This document shows, one piece after another, positions 9,990 through 55,593 of a stretch of DNA of 64,000 bases; position 1 is the stretch's first letter, and the number at the start of each line of letters is the position of its first letter. The position numbers and the translations under genes were made by a program. Location: contig OZ024747.1 in NCBI GenBank assembly GCA_964016885.1, positions 33,914,001 to 33,978,000 of the forward strand, in the 5' to 3' direction. The notes under the pieces are model-generated. The model was not told where the DNA came from. It made no database searches and was given only the letters and a program-made list of their open reading frames with translations. Source of the stretch: Eledone cirrhosa (Eukaryota).

Positions 9990-12900
9990 AGGAGAAAGGA
10001 AAATATTTTTAAGGATCAGTTTTTCTTTTCTTTTTTTCTTTCTTTGATTCAGGGGAGGTAAATGTGATTGGCAAAAGTAGGGTTATAAAAGAAATTATAT
10101 TTTTGGAATATGGTTTTAGAGAGTATGAGTGTGTATGTATGTGAGTGTATATATACAAATACACACATGTGTGTGTGCATGTGTATGTATGTGTATTGAA
10201 GTGTGCTGTGTGTGCGTGCTTTAGTTTGTCTGTCAAGGGTCTCTTTGTAGTGGGAAATTAAAAAAGAAAATCAGAGTAAAGCATCAGTGGTGGCTTTCAA
10301 TCAGGTATTTTTGTAAAATATGTGTATGAGCAATTTCTTTCTTATTTCGTTGTGTATGTGTGTGAAGGAGAGCGAGATAATCTAATGGAGGTGATTATAT
10401 ATTTAATTTTGGTTTAAATCTCTAAAGCCCAGCAAAATCTTCCCACATTAACAAATACCACCCCAGCACTACAAAATGCAACCTCATAACATCAACACTA
10501 TGTATCCCAGAAAGAATCCACCCAGACCACTTGAACTCATTACAGAACCCTTACACAATAACAACTACAACATATACCACCCCCATCACCACATTGACTC
10601 TCATGTAAAAACAAATTAAAGACCCATACAAAACAGACAAACAGACTACAATTACAACCAAAACAACATTCCTTTTTTAGGAACGCGACTGAAATTCCAG
10701 GACACCAGATGGCCCCCACTCATGAGAAACCGAAGAAAATTAATCTTTCAAAATTATCATTAACTAACACACAAATTAACATATTAAGTAAGGGACTGAT
10801 ATTTACACCCACACCACAAAAATCTAACTTCCCCGAAATGAAAGATGACATCATGGAATTCTGCCGAAAACTCAGACTAATAGAATACTTCTCCAATGAC
10901 ACCAACACTGAAGATGAATCAATAGTGAGAAACAAAAGTGATGTATGCCCACAGAAAGGGAGGAACAGAACACTGGACACCTACTGCGAACGCACCATCA
11001 AATTTTACTATGAACAAATCACAAATAAACACAAGAAATCGAACCGCTCTAAACACGAATGGAAATAATTATTCACACTTTGAGATAAGACTGACATAAC
11101 CATCAAAGAACCCGATAAAGGGAGCACTGTGGTCAGTATGGAAACTGACTACTATAGGGACCTGGCACTTAAAATGTTAGACAACAGATACTACGAAAAA
11201 ATAGAAAACTACAAACTAACTAAAACAATGGGTGATCTAGAATTACTACAAAAAATACCGCAATAGCCGAACCACAACAGAATTTGAATACATAAGCCAT
11301 TTTAAATGTAATACAAGTGCTTTCTACGGCTTACCGAAGATCCACAATTGTAAACTCATAAACGATGCACGTGACACTTCGACTAACAAATGCTTACAAT
11401 TAACACCACCAAAATACTTAAAACTCAGACCAATTATAGCAGGCCCTGCATGTGAAACACTCAGACTTAGCAATTTCCCGGACTTCTTACTAAAGCCCTT
11501 CCTAAATCATATACAGAGCTTCATACGGGATGACCTTGATATGCTGAACCACCTACCCAAAACTGTAAGTGAAAACACTATGCTTGTCCCCTTTGACGTA
11601 GTAAACCTTTACACTAACATAACCCATAACTATGGGAATAACGCCAATCCAGTGCTGGCTAGACACTCACCAATCTGAAATACCAACACGCATCAACAAA
11701 ATCTTCATTATTGATGGACTCCGATTTATCGAAGAATCTTTCCTTACACATCTCAAAAATAATTGGAAGATATACCTAGACGATTGCATTATACTATTGC
11801 AAGAAAACATGATTACACTCGCTATTTTCAAAAATATGATAAACAACATTAACAATAACATGTAATTCCCAATGGAATCCAACTCCAAGCAATTAGCCTT
11901 CTTGGATATCCTTATTTTAAAAACAGTACCCACGGACTCCAAACAGTACCTCCTCTTCACATCGAATCACCCAAAACATACAAAACTTAACATTCCATTT
12001 AACTTAGCACCATAGTATCAGGCTCATCTAAGCGGGAACAAAGATTAAATGGACTAAAAACACACTTTAAGAGTCTTCCCACTTGACATAATTAATAACG
12101 GAATAGACAGAGCAAAACACGCACATTTTCATCAACTCAACTACCACCGAAAGCACAGAAACACAAACAATACCTTACCATATGTATCCACGGTCAGCCC
12201 CAGAAATACCGAAATATTCGACCACCTACACAAAAACCTCCCCATTCTATTTAAAGGTGAAAAAAGGAAAGATATCCTAGAAACTCACAAGATCATTAAA
12301 AGTAAAATGCAACCCAAATCACTAAAACACTTTCTTACTAGAACAAATATACACAAAACAGTCTCCAGCCTTACGGTAACAAAATGTGGAAGAACAAACT
12401 GTGGCACATACCTATACATAATTAAAGGACAAATTCACTTGAAACTCAGAGAACCTGATCTACGTAATCACATGCGGTGGTTGTCGACATAACTAAATAA
12501 GGGTGTGTCATTAAGCAAAAAATTGACCATCCATTGCCAACAAATCCGAGACGTAAACACAAGAAAAATCGCCTTAAATAGCCACATTTCAGAGAGTGCA
12601 GGAATGACCCTACCCAACTTTAAAATGATCCCCCTTTACAAGTGCTCCAATTCTTTCACACACCAATAAAGAATAAATAAAAACTATTTATTAACAAATT
12701 TAAACCAAAATTAAATATATAATCACCCCATTAGATTCTCTCTACCCCCCCCCCCCCCCTACACGCACACACACACACCACAAAATAAGAAAGAAATTTT
12801 TCATACACATATTTTCCAAAAATTCCTGATTGAAAGCCACCACTGATGCTTTAGTCTCTCTTTTTTTAATTTCCCACCACAAAGGGACCTGTGACAGACC

Positions 12901-33040: not shown

Positions 33041-33225
33041 CATTCATACATATACATACATATACATTCATGCATAAATACAGACAAATAACAATGTTGT
33101 CTCTGATGGAGATGAAGCAAGAGTGTATTTGAATACATATAAAACTGAGATAACTCATTGCAAGAATAGCCATTAAAACAGCTAAATGATGTTAAAGACA
33201 GCGATGGACAAAAATGCCTCAGATG

Positions 33226-33770
33226 CCAGAGGTCAGCAACCAGTGGTCAACAGAGAGACCATCCATAAGGTCGGTGACAGGTAGATGATATATGTCTTAG
33301 AGAACAGAGGTCAGTGACCAGTGGTCAACAGAGAGACCATCCAGAAGGTGGGTGACAGGTAGATGATATATGTCTTAGAGGACAGAGGTCAGCGACAAGT
33401 GGTCAACACAGAGACCATCCAGAAGGTCGGTGACAGGTAGATGGTATATGTCTTAGAGGACAGAGGTCAGCAACCAGTGGTCAACAGAGAGAGACCATCC
33501 ATAAGGTCGGTGACAGGTAGATGATATATGTCTCAGAGGACAGAGGTCAGTGACCAGTGGTCAACAGAGAGAGACCATCCACAAGGTGGGTGACAGGTAG
33601 ATGATATATGTCTCAGAGGACAGAGGTCAGTGACCAGTGGTCAACAGAGAGACCATCCACAAGGTGGGTGACAGGCAGATGATATATGTCTCAGAGGACA
33701 GGGACCAGTGGTCAGTGGTTGGTCAACAGAGAGACCAACCACAAGGTGCGTGACAGGTAGATGAAATATA
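33226..33770. repeat. Minisatellite, ~78-80-bp unit, about 7 copies
   Basis: cagaggtcagYRaccagtggtcaacagagagaccatccaNaaggtSggtgacaggtagatgatatatgtctYagagga. Confidence 0.95.
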
Positions 33771-48102: not shown

Positions 48103-48759
48103 TAGTGGCTGCCAACTCGTTTTCGAGTACGGCCACTACTTTATATCCATGTAGGAGAACTCCTACCGATACGCTGAACGAGTGTGACTTTTTAGTCCAG
48201 CTAGTGACTTGAAAACTCTGGTACAAACACTACACTTGTGACAATTATTGACACATAGTGCTGGGCCCATGGTACCATGTGACGACAAGTGCAGAGAGAT
48301 CTACAGATATAAAGCAATGCCTGTGCCGCGGGTCAATTAATTTTTTCAATAATTTTAACCACGCGTGAAGAACTCAATTGGATATGAAAAAAATAAATAT
48401 ATGCATGTATTATTTATACACGTATATAGGTATTTTCTTAGGCTAAAAACAGAGACAATATACCGGAAGAACAATCAATATTCCATACAAAGAATAAATA
48501 CGGAAAGTCATACCTAAAAAGTATCTGGAAATATTCATCCCTGGCCAAATCAAGAGTATAATATTTAATACATTAACAGAGAGAGCTTTAAGCAATACTA
48601 CGACCGGCTTCCGTCTCACTCAACAAACTTTAGGATATACCTTAGTATAATCCCAATTATACGTTTGGGGTGCTAACTATACGTATTTTGCGGATAGCCA
48701 GTTGTATTATTTTATATGAGACATAATTAAAATACATATATATATATATTTATATATAT

Positions 48760-51450
48760 TTTGAAAAACCTAAAATAATCAACCTTTCAAATACAAACTT
48801 CTCAGCCCAATAAATTTAAATTCTCTCCAAAGGACTGAAATTCACACCAACACCATAATACTCTAACCTGAATGAGATAAATGACGATATCTCACACATC
48901 TGTAGAAAATTACGTCTCACAGAAGAATCTTTTGACAAGGAGAATAACGACCAATCAATTGTATGGAATAAAAGCAGCTACAACCCAACAAAAGGTAGAA
49001 ACAGAGTTCTGGACAAATTTTGTGACCACATAGCTAGTTTCCCATACTATGAACTACCTCAACGTAAACCCAAACCCAACACGAGTCGAAGGGAATGGGA
49101 GATTATCCATGAACTACAAAACAATACGGACATTATAATTAAGGAAGCGGACAAGGGAAGTACTGTCGTCATTAAGGATGCTGAACAATATAAACATTGT
49201 ATGTTCTCTCTCTTACAAAATACTAACTACTATGAAAGAGTAAAAAACTACCAGCAATCAAAAACGATGACCAGATTAAACACATTCATTTGCCGATACC
49301 AGGAAGACTTAACTAAAAAGGAGCGCGATTATTTAACACAGTTTGAATACAAAACCAGCAACCTTTACGGACTTCCGAAAATCCACAAGTGTAAAATAAT
49401 TAACGATGCCTGTAAACAATCAACCTCAACCTGCGTGAACACACAATACCCCACAGACCTTAAATTAAGACCAATTGTAGCGAGCCTACAATGTGAAACA
49501 CACAGACTAAGCAACTTTATAGACATACTACTAAAACCAATTCTCAAACACATACCAAGCCTTGTAAGAGACGATCTGCACCTCTTAAACCACTTCCCCA
49601 AACATGTCAAAAACAACACTATTATTGTGTCTTTCGATATAGTGAATCTCTACACAACGATCCCACACCAATACGGACTAGAAGCAATAGGATTCTGGTT
49701 AGAGAAATATCCCAATGAGATACCTGACAGAATAGAATAAACCTTCATCACCGAGGGATTACAATTTATTTTACAGAACAACTTTTTTGATTTCGATGGC
49801 AGCACTTACAAGCGGGGACTGCGATGGGTACAAAAGCCGCTCCAACTTATGCCAACTTAGTCATGGCATACTTGGAAGTCCAGATATATGAACAGTCCAA
49901 ATCAAAATACGGATTGAACTTCCACAAATATTTATCAGAGAATTGGAACGATACTTGGATGATTGTCTCATTCTTTGGCCTCACACACTCGACCAACTAA
50001 ATGATTTCAAAAATTGTATTAACGGCATCAATAACCACATCCAATTCACAGTGGAATACAGCCAAGATCAACTCCAATTTCTGGACATCTTAATCTTAAA
50101 AAAAGACACAAATTTTGAAACTGACATACACTACAAACCAACAGATTCCAAACAATACCTGCTATTCATCTCCAACCATCCAAAGCACATGAAGACGAAC
50201 ATCCCTTTTAACCTAGCAAGAAGAATTTGCACAATTGTCTCCAATTATGAAACGCGAAATAAAAGACTTCAAGAATTAAAGGAAATTCTACTCGAAAGAC
50301 AGTACCCACCATTACTGATAAATAATGGCATAGAAACGGCTAAAGCAATAGGCATTGATGAATTACGAAAACAGAAACAAATTCAAGGTACGTCCAATAT
50401 TCTATCATATATCTCAACACACAACCCAAGAAATGCGGAAGCTTACAACACTATTCACAAGAACATCCCACTATTGAAACAAGACCCAAGAATTAAAAAA
50501 AGCCCTTGAAACACACAAAATAATCAAAAGCAAAATACAACCGAAATCACTAAAAACATTACTCACCAATGCCAAATTACCTACCACAAACCCACAACCA
50601 ACTGTCAAAAAATGTGGTCGCTCTAATTGTGGAACCTGCACTCACCTCATTGAAGGCAACGCGTATACATTTCAATCAGGACAAAATTTTGCTGTAAAAA
50701 ATCACTTTACTTGCTCATCAAAAAATCTATTTTATGCCATTAAATGTAAAGGATGCAGTGAAGATTATATAGGACAAACTAAAGTCACACTCAGAAACAG
50801 AAGACAATTCATTGCCAACAATTACGAGACCCTACCACGAGACAGATACCACTAAGTGCACATCTAGACATATGCGCAAATAATAAGACACCAAAATTCC
50901 AAGTCTTCCCATTTTATCTTTGCGCTGACAATACAACCGACGAAATACGAATAAATAAGGAAAATATGTTTATTCAAAAATATAGACCAGCATTAAATAT
51001 GGTTTAATATACATTATGTCAACACCATAACATGCTTAGCACACACCCCCCACACACATAACTCCCTCCTCCATTTCTACTAACAGAATCATTTTCCTAC
51101 ACACACACAGACACACAAAAAAATATATATTCTCTCCATATTAACATGCTAACCATACTCTCACACACATATACACACACACATAACATCCATACACATA
51201 CACAACTCCCTCCCACATTTCTTCTAATAGAATCATCTTCCTACACACACACGCACACACACAAACAAGCACACAGATAAACATACATATCTCTACTTTC
51301 TTTATTTCAATAGAAAGTCTGAATTCTAACACCCCAGCGAACCAGCCATATTCACTGAACCAGAACAATTCTCCCCATCCTATTTTTCTTGACCATTATC
51401 TTTTGTTTGGCACAAAATTATCTAAAAGGCTACAAAATAAATTCCCAAAT
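48760..51450 (+). mobile_element. Penelope-like element 2 (Neptune-type), 5' truncated
   Basis: LSKGLKFTPTP, IIKEADKG, YGLPKIHK, SFDIVNLYTTIP, GTAMGTKAAPTYANL, RYLDD, CGRSNCGTC, NLFYAIKCKGCSEDYIGQT (GIY-YIG with CCHH); coding ends ~51005. Confidence 0.93.
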
Positions 51451-51539
51451 ACGGGCGCGATATTTAATGAATTTGTTCACGTGACAGTCATAATTTCATT
51501 TATAACCAATCAAATTACATTTATTAAAAAAGAGCCTAT

Positions 51540-54500
51540 ATGAAACGATCAACACATACTTTACGAATAACACAAACCTAATTCAAACAAACGAGGAGCC
51601 ATGTAGCACAGATACACTAGCAACATACAAAATTAAAAACCAAATAATACCACAATTGAACACATCACTCAGAGACAGAAAATTCTCCGTTTGGAAGATG
51701 ATCCAAAACAACAACAAAGCGGAGCTTTATGAAAAATGGTTCAATTCATCCCCATTAATTCATACCCGCAAACTACAGATTAAACCCATCCCAGATGAAC
51801 CCGAGACGCAAAGACGACTAAGGGAATGAATGGCTCTGGAATGAATGAAGAGAGGAATTGAACTTGTAAAATTGAGGGCTCGGACAAATGAGGATAAAAT
51901 AAAATCCCTCGACAAAGAGATCAACCAAGAAATTAACATAAAGACTCAAGGCACCAACCTAGAAAATATCTTTAAACTATGGATAGAGAATTGCAACAAG
52001 GAACTGAAATCCCTTCAACGCTGGGAAAACAGCGAAACTTGGTTTTTGAACTATGGAACAATCTTTCAAACAGAATACGCTTCTAACAACTCCTTCATAA
52101 AAACAAGAAAACCTAAACACCACTCAGACACAGTTCGACAACCAAAAAAAAAAAAAAAAAAACACAAAATTCTCTCCTACCAAAAAAAGAAGGCAACACC
52201 TTACCTTTACCTCTTAATCCAACCACGCAGCAACTACGCGGATACCCATGCAACTTACAAAGAAATAAGATACAATTACCTCCAGGATGGACATTACAAA
52301 TTCCCTCCACGATCCCGAACCTTCAATAACAACAGCAGGGAACAACACAACCACACGAGACAACCCAGCATCAGCAACCGACACAATTTCCTTAATCATT
52401 TTTTAGACCCAGTACACAGACACTGTGAAACGAGATGACACAAGACATACAGGAGAGACAAAAAGTAATACAAGTCATACATTTAGCCACTAAAGAACTA
52501 ACAACCGACCAAATCAACATACTCTACAAAGGGCTGAAATTTACACCGACGCCCAAGCATCCAAACTACTCCGAAACGAATGAAGACATTGCAGAGTCTG
52601 TAGAAAATTAAGACTTAGTGAGGAACTACACAACCAGTACAGTGAGGACGATTCACCAGCGAGAAGTAGAAGCAACTACACCCCATCAAAAGGTAAGAAC
52701 CCATTTCTAGACCAATTCTGTGAACACATTACAAATTATCCATATCAACACCTACACAGACATAAACACCAGCCAAACTTCAACAAGAAAAAATGGGATG
52801 AGCTGAACAGATTAAAGAATGATAAAACTACAACAATCAAAGAGGCAGATAAAGAGAGTGCCGTAGTACTTAAGGAGACAGAATATTATACAACCCCAGT
52901 ACTCTCATCTTTAGAAGACGAAACATACTACGAAAAGTCTCAATACTACAGCCAGCAGAAAATAATGAGAAACCTAAAAACTCTGATAAACTTTTTAAAG
53001 AGAAGGACTTACCGACAACGAATACAACTATATCACTAACTTCAAAAGCAAATGCAGCCTTTTCTATGGTAACCCTAAGATACACAAAAGCGAAAATATA
53101 AGTAAGGCATGCAAGGAAGCCACAGATATATTCATCAATGTCCCCTCACCTAATGACCTCAAATTAAGGCCGAAAATAGCAGGCCCCACATTCGAAACCC
53201 ACCGCATCAGCAACTTCCTTTATATCCTATTAAAACCATTCTTGAGACACATTAAAAGCTACATAAGGGACGACCTTCATAGGCTCAACCACCTCCCCAA
53301 AACATTTAATAATAAACATAACCTACTAGTGTCTTTTGATGTAGTCAACCTATATTTCAATATCCCACACAACCTAGGAATAGAAGCAATCCAATTCTGG
53401 TTAGAAAATTACCCCAATGAACTCCCACACCGCACCATAAAAGAATTCGCAATAGAAGGGCTAACATTTATCTTGGAGAATAAGTAATTTGTATTCAATG
53501 CCAAATCCTACACACAGAAATCCAGGACTGCCATGGGCGCGAAAACGGCCCCCTCTTACGCCAACCTTGTTATGAGCTATCTGGAAATCACCCTCTACCG
53601 AAAAGTACTAGATAAATACGGAATGTCTTTCTACCTCTACATAGAAAGTAACTGGAAGAGATATCTGGATGATTGTTTCATCCTCTGGAATGAAAGTATG
53701 GAAAGACTTATTGAATTTAAAACACTTCTAAATGGACCCAACACAAACATTCAATTTACAATGGAATACAGCCATGACTTGAGCAACTTCCTTTCCTCGA
53801 CATCCTTATACAGAAAACTAACAACAAAATAGAAACAGACATATGCTATAAGCCCACAGACTCCAAACAGTATCTTCCATTCAACCGATGCCACCCGAGA
53901 CACACTAAAATAAACATACCTTACAACCTAATCAAAAGGATCAGTACAATAGTATCTAATAGGAACACCTGCTACATACGACTAGAAGAACTAAAGGACA
54001 CACTCATTAGCAGAAACTACCCACCACCACTAATTAACAATGGATTCCAACGTGTCCTAAAACTCTGTATCGAGGATCTTAGACATCCTAAACTAAAGAA
54101 TGAATTGCAACTGAAAGCTCTACCTTACATCTCCATACACTGCCCGCTTAACAATGAGGCATTCGACACCATCACCCAGAACATACCTTTACTAAAAAGA
54201 TACATAAGAATGAATCAAATCCTTCAAACACACAACATTATAACGAGCAAACGACAACCCAAATCAATGAAAAACAACCTTACACAGGCCAAAGATCAGC
54301 CGATCTTAACAATGAATCCTACAGTAAAACAATGCGGAAGACCCAACTGTGGTATATGTATCAACCTAATCAAGGGATCGGAGTTCTACTTCAAACAAGG
54401 ACAACCCTTTACAGTTAAAATATAACTTCACATGCGCATCAGAAAATCTGATTTATATGTTGACTTGCTCAGGTTGACGAGAGCACTATGTAGGAGAGTT

Positions 54501-55030
54501 CATAGATCCCAAATTAAAATACGGGAATACAGAAAAATATCACAGAGTAAACACATAGCCATCTGTCGCTCTAATGAATAACCCAACTTCAGAATTTTCC
54601 CCCTCTACAAATTTAAAGACAACGCTCCCTACATCCAGCATATTAGCAAAGAATCACACTTTATCATTAAATACGAATCCCTTTTAAATACATCTACTTC
54701 AGATGAAACTGCAGCTTTAACATTACCACCATGGGCAAATTAAGGAAGATATATTTAGAAACATTCCCACTGCAGGTAAATTTTTAACACCAATGGACAA
54801 ACTAAGAATGCCAGCATTACAGAAAGAGATACTAAGAATACTATTTTTAGAATCAATTACACCTTCGGTCAACTCTAAGGTTACTCAATCATTTAAACCA
54901 ATCCCACGGACAGCTCCCTTTACCATTATCAACAGTGATACTATTACTACTACACTTCCCCGTCGTCCCCTTCTGCTTCACCCACCCTTTCTCCATCTTC
55001 CCCTTGCCACACCTATTCCCTGTCCCTCCC

Positions 55031-55061
<31 letters not shown>

Positions 55062-55070
55062 CTTCTTCTT

Positions 55071-55101
<31 letters not shown>

Positions 55102-55450
55102 TTCTTCTTCTTCTTCTATTTCTCACCCCACTACTACCTCTACAGTCAAAGCCAACAGCTTAAACAGAACAAACTGATTCTTCCCTGCTACTCCCACTGT
55201 TGGTAGTGACACAGCTAAGATCAGCACTAAGAGAGAAAGAAAGAAAACTACAGACAAAAATGTGAACTTTCTCTTTATATATGTATGTAAAAATAATTTT
55301 TCCCCATATTGTTATTGTTCTTATTAATATACAATTTAATTGCATTATACGCCTCTGTCGTGTGAAAAAGCCTACAAGCAGAAACCGGTACAAATAATGC
55401 GGACATTTCTATTTTGTATATAAATGTTTTGATATTATTCTCAGAGAAAA
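51540..55450 (+). mobile_element. Penelope-like element 3 (Neptune-type) with upstream ORF
   Basis: Upstream helical ORF ~51690-52438. RT ORF from ATG 52435 (ILYKGLKFTPTP, MGAKTAPSYANL, WKRYLDD, CGRPNCGIC, LIYMLTCSG*REHYVGE); decayed. Confidence 0.92.
55032..55118. repeat. (CTT)n microsatellite
   Basis: Directly visible in sequence. Confidence 0.95.
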
Positions 55451-55593
55451 TCCCTATAGCATTTTCTACTGAGTTTTTTAAAACTATTTTTTTTATATAT
55501 ATATCAACTCGTGTGTCACTTCTCTCTCTGTGTATGTATATATATAGATATAGATAAATATACACGGATGTGTATGATTGTGTATAGAAGATT

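Follow-up and report, generated by a model that had tools for sequence, protein, structure and literature searches.

A conserved ORF1/RT junction points to programmed −1 frameshifting in endonuclease-bearing Penelope-like elements

Introduction

Penelope-like elements (PLEs) that carry an endonuclease (EN) are the sister group of telomerase RT and have been described as single-ORF elements. For the Athena/Terminon PLEs of bdelloid rotifers, which are said to be telomeric and to lack an EN, a T6A frameshift has reportedly been described by Arkhipova et al. in 2017. These elements have coiled-coil ORFs beside the PLE RT (accessible text of PMC6431247). Additional ORFs are also known from Neptune-like elements: the accessible text of PMC5408684 mentions extra ORFs with esterases, and that of bioRxiv 10.1101/2025.05.22.655539 a non-overlapping ORF of 420 nt, and neither text states a frameshift. 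According to the legend of Fig. 1 in PMC8557442, some PLE type can have an ORF1 set off by a frameshift with a pseudoknot; this part of the paper does not name the clade. The literature in its accessible text yielded no description of a frameshift in Neptune or EN-bearing PLEs; figures, Repbase/Dfam notes, subscription papers and supplements may hold one. A frameshift in EN-bearing PLEs was likewise absent from the accessible parts of PMC5408684, PMC6431247, PMC3846280, PMC4209133, PMC5718144, PMC7943196, PMC4700185, PMC13282606, PMC5009743, 10.1101/2025.05.22.655539 and 10.64898/2026.07.22.740005.

The heptamer U UUU UUA is the frameshift site of HIV (PMC5009743, accessible text). In E. coli reporters, −1 shifting rose about twofold when a slow stop followed the slippery site at a distance of 8-10 codons, according to the available part of Smith et al. 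2019 (PMC6815119). In SARS-CoV-2, the position of the stop acts by letting a pseudoknot refold (PMC8168617, available part). Here, we describe EN-bearing PLEs in which an upstream ORF1 overlaps the RT-EN gene. Judged from comparison of sequences, the conserved ORF1/RT junction most likely directs gag-pol-like programmed −1 frameshifting, to which we assign a probability of roughly 0.8.

Results

The window, a stretch of 64,000 nt from a 3.0-Gb animal genome assembly (Eledone cirrhosa, contig OZ024747.1, positions 33,914,001 to 33,978,000), holds a decayed, 5'-truncated PLE copy that we assign to family A (Table 1). The ORF1 frame reads AAT CAT TTT TTA GAC across the heptamer, which thus lies in the phase X XXY YYZ, and the −1 frame read from 52399 contains a single TGA before it reaches the RT N-terminal motifs. 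An earlier note on this DNA had described this arrangement, together with the ATGA overlap of ORF1 stop and RT start and an ORF1 that extends 5' through stops, and all of these were found again; the stops lie at 51827 and 51842, and the frame runs across them to the 5' truncation at about 51535. The note had also pointed out that the heptamer and the ATG are separated by the same 36 nt in a third copy, its PLE1. This is correct (10673 to 10709; copy at 10.4-12.7 kb). However, the third copy, a member of family B, has ATGG in place of ATGA and its ORF1 runs on past there, so that the spacing is common to both copies and the overlap is not. The ORF1 remnant shares 65% aa identity over 127 aa with the intact ORF1 of family E, the differences being distributed 33/22/53 over the three codon positions, and it has lost about 186 nt near 52300. 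Intact relatives of the RT-EN gene are 775-784 aa long from stop to stop. The copies of families C and A lie head to tail, about 25 nt apart, between 48758 and 55525. Elsewhere in the window, a tandem array of seven copies of a 78-nt unit occupies 33214-33769.

Table 1. Features of the junction and of the neighbouring PLE copies in the window
Feature	Position	Strand	Observation
Penelope-like element copy, two-ORF, C-terminal EN, family A, decayed and 5'-truncated	51535..55525	+	77-87% identity to other genomic copies across 51535-54744
ORF1 remnant, helical domain and low-complexity tail, N-terminus missing	51535..52438	+	
TAA closing the RT (−1) frame, one codon 5' of the heptamer	52393..52395	+	28/30 family A copies
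Slippery heptamer T TTT TTA, ORF1 frame, Phe-Leu	52399..52405	+	exact in 22/30 family A copies; in six families and four metagenome elements
TGA in −1 frame, peculiar to the copy, not a family trait	52426..52428	+	2/30 family A copies
ORF1 stop TGA (52436-52438), 10 codons 3' of the heptamer, overlapping ATG (52435-52437)	52435..52438	+	family A: ATG 28/30, TGA 25/30
RT-linker-GIY-YIG gene, −1 frame, several stops and frameshifts	52399..54690	+	ORF pieces; RVT_1 match on one piece
CX4CxxC Zn-finger-like linker between RT and endonuclease	54333..54359	+	read in ORF 53778-54425; conserved in relatives
Probable pseudo-LTR end	55417..55525	+	109 nt, 71-72% match to region 5' of ORF1 in L064 and L065
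5'-truncated copy of related family C, adjacent; own junction lost, family keeps junction	48758..51509	+	92.6% to L281
T TTT TTA in third copy (family B, PLE1 of the earlier note)	10673..10679	+	36 nt 5' of ATG followed by G

A single decayed copy could carry such a T run by accident, and a single ORF could have been split by mutation. The copy is indeed heavily broken, and with 54 instances of TTTTTTA in the window the heptamer carries little weight by itself. On the sense strand of the element, which is poor in T, however, the expected number is about 0.12 overall and 0.001 for in-phase occurrences within the last 30 codons. We aligned the best 30 of 73 family A matches, the window copy included; these are best hits and not a random sample. 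The spacing is in register in 26 of the 30, and 28 have a sense codon where the window copy has its interrupting TGA. The earlier note had named a TGA fixed in the consensus −1 frame, together with no measurable frameshifting, as what would speak against its reading; since it is seen in two of 30 copies, it represents decay of the copy. Nearly all the depth of the sample contigs at 52426 also differs from the window, although this sample may be the source of the assembly and is then not independent. L001 and L007, the sole copies with the TGA, have the same two-base change there and are about 87% identical overall. Finally, the same offset is seen in young, intact copies from five related families. 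None of the best 150 ORF1 homologues exceeds 553 aa, and a search for fused forms gave none, which by itself weighs little. The intact copies already refute an accidental origin, to which we give a negligible chance.

The five further families (B-F) were found in the genome by protein searches; their copy sets are, as for family A, best hits and not random samples. Together with four metagenome elements, the six families give ten representative lineages, between which the RT N-terminal region is 34-58% identical (80% for the pair L103/L104). In all ten, a conserved helical ORF1 is read through T TTT TT(A/G) and the RT follows in −1. The downstream −1 gene is open from the site in the families and broken only in decayed copies, and differences between the ORF1 sequences of families fall mostly at third codon positions. 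In the young family B, an ORF1 of 421 aa and an RT-EN frame of 777 aa overlap in −1, and 70 of 75 copies have six T. Family C is in register at 27 of 30 loci; family D has six T at 14 of 20. Family E, which shares 77% DNA identity with its sister family A, has a junction with the stop at the same 10 codons, TAA over ATA, at 8 of 12 loci. For family F, 163 exact junction matches were found, and ORF1 is open for 451 codons up to the site. The metagenome loci keep the junction in five of six cases, always in phase; three of these read T TTT TTA, and the remaining two, which are nearly identical to each other, T TTT TTG.

In all ten representatives, a stop closes the RT frame 0-20 codons 5' of the site and no Met lies in between, and in seven of them (including D, F, L103, L104 and L107) the first Met lies 3' of the first conserved RT motif. 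In most lineages, translation of the RT must therefore begin further upstream. This bears on the stop-restart coupling proposed in the earlier note, in which ribosomes would terminate at the end of ORF1 and reinitiate at the overlapping or a nearby AUG to make a free RT-EN. Such a route would fit the ATGA kept in at least 25 of 30 family A copies, the corresponding ATG of family B and an ATG upstream of the first motif in L106. However, the ORF1 stop overlaps an ATG in family A only. In family E the stop persists as TAA but the ATG is replaced by ATA, and family C has GTG where family A has ATG (ATG is absent in 18 of 19 in-frame copies). Hence a conserved AUG at the upstream stop is not found. 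Among the 29 protein homologues with a 10-codon stop described below, six have a last residue that could not be encoded with ATGA, a share close to the background of 30%. Reinitiation also leaves the heptamer unexplained. We consider it very improbable as an account of the junction, but in families A and B it may still contribute to a small extent. The ATGA overlap would be a by-product of where the 10-codon ORF1 stop falls.

Intact ORF1 proteins have 320-430 aa. For their conserved domain, structure prediction yields four long helices (pLDDT 84), in agreement with the "coiled-coil-looking" ORF1 of the earlier note. The ORF1 of the family B copy L061 has no Pfam hit and no Atlas hit. A search for ORF1 in the PDB gave nothing at E≤0.001, and the highest structural score (VIA Z 8.8) was to generic helical bundles, so we assign no fold. 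We infer a structural or RNA-packaging role for this helical protein and its basic, disordered tail. A profile built from nine ORF1 sequences matched 908 clusters at E≤0.001, and the best 150 homologues are 87-553 aa long. Scans of viral contigs and genome contigs found no relatives, and word-based protein searches recovered P0001 alone and no fused ORF1-RT form, which is weak evidence.

These homologues carry a second record of the junction. We dropped 41 of the 150 that had a tail of <60 aa and kept 109 with a tail of ≥60 aa. Phe-Leu lies within the last 30 residues in 77 of the 109, compared to 5 of 335 control windows, and within the last 40 residues in 88. In these 88, where the heptamer is inferred from residues and not from DNA and the cluster representatives are related, the residue before Phe-Leu is never K, E, Q, M or W (0/88 vs 21% background), and its codon can end in U in every case. 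This is the trace that U UUU UUA would be expected to leave. The 21 homologues without Phe-Leu include five with Phe-Phe, which is slippery-compatible too. P0059 and P0064 end in Tyr-Phe-Arg, whereas their close relatives read Phe-Leu-Asp/Glu at this place and then continue identically; this is possibly an altered slip site.

A T run followed by AG might also serve as a 3' splice acceptor. An intron in ORF1 would be removed and 5' sequence joined to the RT frame, while unspliced RNA would make ORF1 and be retrotransposed. PLEs are known to retain introns (accessible text of PMC8557442). The AG directly follows the heptamer, with G as the next base, in eight of the ten DNA representatives, in nine the cut at the first AG would fall in the same phase of the RT frame, and 63 of the 88 proteins have a residue with a G-start codon after Phe-Leu (background 19%). 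However, the other 25 have a residue whose codon cannot begin with G, family F has A after the heptamer in all 100 matches listed, and L106 and L108 read TTG C. In family F and L106 the AG is absent right after the heptamer and present 4-6 nt later, so the AG after the pyrimidine run is not invariant as a spliceosomal acceptor demands. Moreover, another AG lies 8-13 nt upstream in seven of ten representatives, and pyrimidines make up 20-60% of the 25 nt before the site. Splicing requires neither an in-phase read-through of ORF1 nor exactly six T nor U before Phe-Leu. No spliced DNA copy was seen in 75 family B copies or in the sample contigs, which stem from four runs of one study; this is a weak argument because PLEs keep introns. 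On balance, we regard splicing as unlikely.

The T run could also act during transcription, with the RNA polymerase adding a U so that a few transcripts have ORF1 and RT in one frame. One extra T does fuse the frames, and copies with seven T exist (2/20 in family D, 1/75 in family B and one contig in run X4). Yet such copies do not accumulate, though retrotransposition would fix them. Six T are short for polymerase slippage, and conservation extends to the final A and the codon phase. Transcriptional slippage is therefore, in our estimate, highly unlikely.

Downstream RNA structure, which the earlier note had put forward for prediction, gave no conserved fold. The MFE z scores range from −0.9 to +1.8 in the ten representatives, z falls below −2 in just two of 12 cases (single family A copies), and no pseudoknot outdid shuffled sequences. 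Thus, the junction shares with canonical −1 PRF the X XXY YYZ heptamer in the upstream frame and the downstream gene in −1, but not the stem-loop or pseudoknot 5-9 nt 3' of the heptamer.

Among the 88 homologues, the ORF1 stop lies exactly 10 codons after the site in 29, where about three are expected, and never closer than 9; none stops at ≤8 codons, where a geometric null predicts 30-45. The 10-codon stop occurs in several branches of the tree and the spacer residues cannot be aligned (10% identical pairwise), but 22 of the 29 cases belong to one clade of 29. At the DNA level, the 10-codon stop is kept in A, E, L106 and L107, with a distance to the RT motif of 120 to 156 nt. In families B, C, F and D, the stop follows the site at a distance of 19, 20, 23 and 31 codons, and in L103/L104 the distance is 3; the stops of B, C and D fall at codons of the K-I-I-N motif. 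We rejected the idea that a hydrophobic RT residue, and not the stop, is selected at +11, as a residue compatible with a T-start codon is found in just 12 of 58 proteins that read on. At junction +36, the RT-frame codon and next base are ATA A in E (L249), ATG A in A (L002), ATG G in B (L061) and GTG G in C (L281). Through these successive A-to-G steps, B and C have Trp in place of the 10-codon ORF1 stop.

Copies of families B and F have peculiarities of their own. In family B, a C run just after the ATG (L061:4056-4064; L067-L072, L129-L148) varies from 6 to over 20 bases. At some lengths of the run, ORF1 and RT come to lie in a single frame of 1050-1180 aa, and sample contigs break there too. 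In-frame fusions as a family B subfamily were considered and rejected: the variable C run lies behind 25 of 75 copies, and those 25 had been chosen for that trait. In two of the 75 copies (L068, L134), the 5' truncation falls inside the site itself, within its 8 bases; since L068 is joined to a TA repeat there, microhomology may explain the truncation. Among the family F junction matches (G000:C1, C4), many form inverted pairs with 1-4 kb between them, and some stand in tandem series at intervals of 4.2 kb.

Discussion

A −1 slip explains together the phase of the heptamer, the length of the T run, the read-through of ORF1 and the missing AUG of the RT, which leads us to the frameshift reading; the earlier note had listed such gag-pol-like expression among its options, and the family data support it. 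In the proposed mechanism, ribosomes would read ORF1 through U UUU UUA into the overlap with the RT-EN gene in the −1 frame. At the heptamer, the tandem tRNA-Phe and tRNA-Leu would slip back one base in a minority of ribosomes. Slipped ribosomes would make an ORF1-RT-EN fusion, while most would stop and release ORF1 alone, so that the fusion would be made at a low ratio to ORF1. Since no conserved RNA stimulator is found, the shift is predicted to occur at the basal rate of the heptamer. The arrangement resembles HIV-1 gag-pol: the heptamer is the same, a structural gene lies upstream, the enzyme gene is in −1 and G is often the next base. Unlike in HIV-1, however, there is no downstream stem-loop, the element is non-viral and ORF1 has no Pfam or PDB match.

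A ribosome that terminates 10 codons ahead possibly raises the slip rate in many lineages. It is conceivable, though we consider it doubtful, that a ribosome queued at this stop stimulates the −1 slip with no RNA fold. As in the E. coli collision reporters (PMC6815119, available part), a slippery site would lie one ribosome length before a stop without an RNA fold. Those reporters are engineered and bacterial, with a peak at 9 codons and an effect of about twofold, whereas the case here is natural and eukaryotic, has its mode at 10 codons and is predicted. The stop effect of SARS-CoV-2 depends on an RNA fold (available part of PMC8168617), and no such fold is seen at this junction. Two observations speak against a queue, namely the concentration of 10-codon cases in one clade and the stops at 19-31 codons in the young families B, C, F and D and at 3 in L103/L104. 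If the 10-codon stop is the stimulus, the junction would be a natural eukaryotic collision-driven frameshift, otherwise found only for engineered bacterial reporters. More broadly, and just as tentatively, a widespread group of EN-bearing PLEs with hundreds of families might use a natural eukaryotic −1 frameshift in which the terminating ribosome is the roadblock and ribosome load and termination speed set the ratio of RT to ORF1.

The frameshift reading has practical consequences. An unannotated helical ORF1 across a large branch (908 clusters), together with gag-pol-like expression, would change how PLEs are annotated and tested. An RT cloned from its first AUG would miss conserved motifs in most lineages. 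The young intact copies in the Eledone cirrhosa genome would allow an immediate reporter test.

With regard to classification, the RT is of PLE type: alignments reveal the N-terminal GxKF and DKG motifs, and RVT_1 scores above cut-off in L061. A C-terminal GIY-YIG EN with CCHH is seen as motifs in intact relatives; because it has no Pfam hit and its structure model reaches a pLDDT of 46, the EN is assigned by motif only. No solved relative of RT-EN was found by sequence. The CX2-5CxxC linker common to Neptune and Nematis is present in the window, and the 3' end matches the region upstream of ORF1 in other copies, as expected of a pseudo-LTR. These motifs fit Neptune, the label given in the earlier note, or Nematis, as defined in the accessible text of PMC8557442. 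The likeness to the Neptune C-terminal EN+ PLEs of that paper (Craig et al. 2021) extends over RT motifs, Cys linker, GIY-YIG with CCHH and pseudo-LTR. In contrast to the canonical EN+ PLEs, which the same text gives as single-ORF, intact copies here have two overlapping ORFs, and unlike the PLE type of its figure legend, the junction here has no pseudoknot that we could find. The helical ORF1 beside a PLE RT recalls the Athena/Terminon elements. The elements described here differ from these in having an EN and in being dispersed over many contigs. An Rfam search of five loci gave no hammerhead and only repeat-driven hits below threshold. By eye, a hammerhead-like string ending in the palindromic ACCGGT can be seen at window positions 55360-55395, and a similar one lies 5' of ORF1 in L061.
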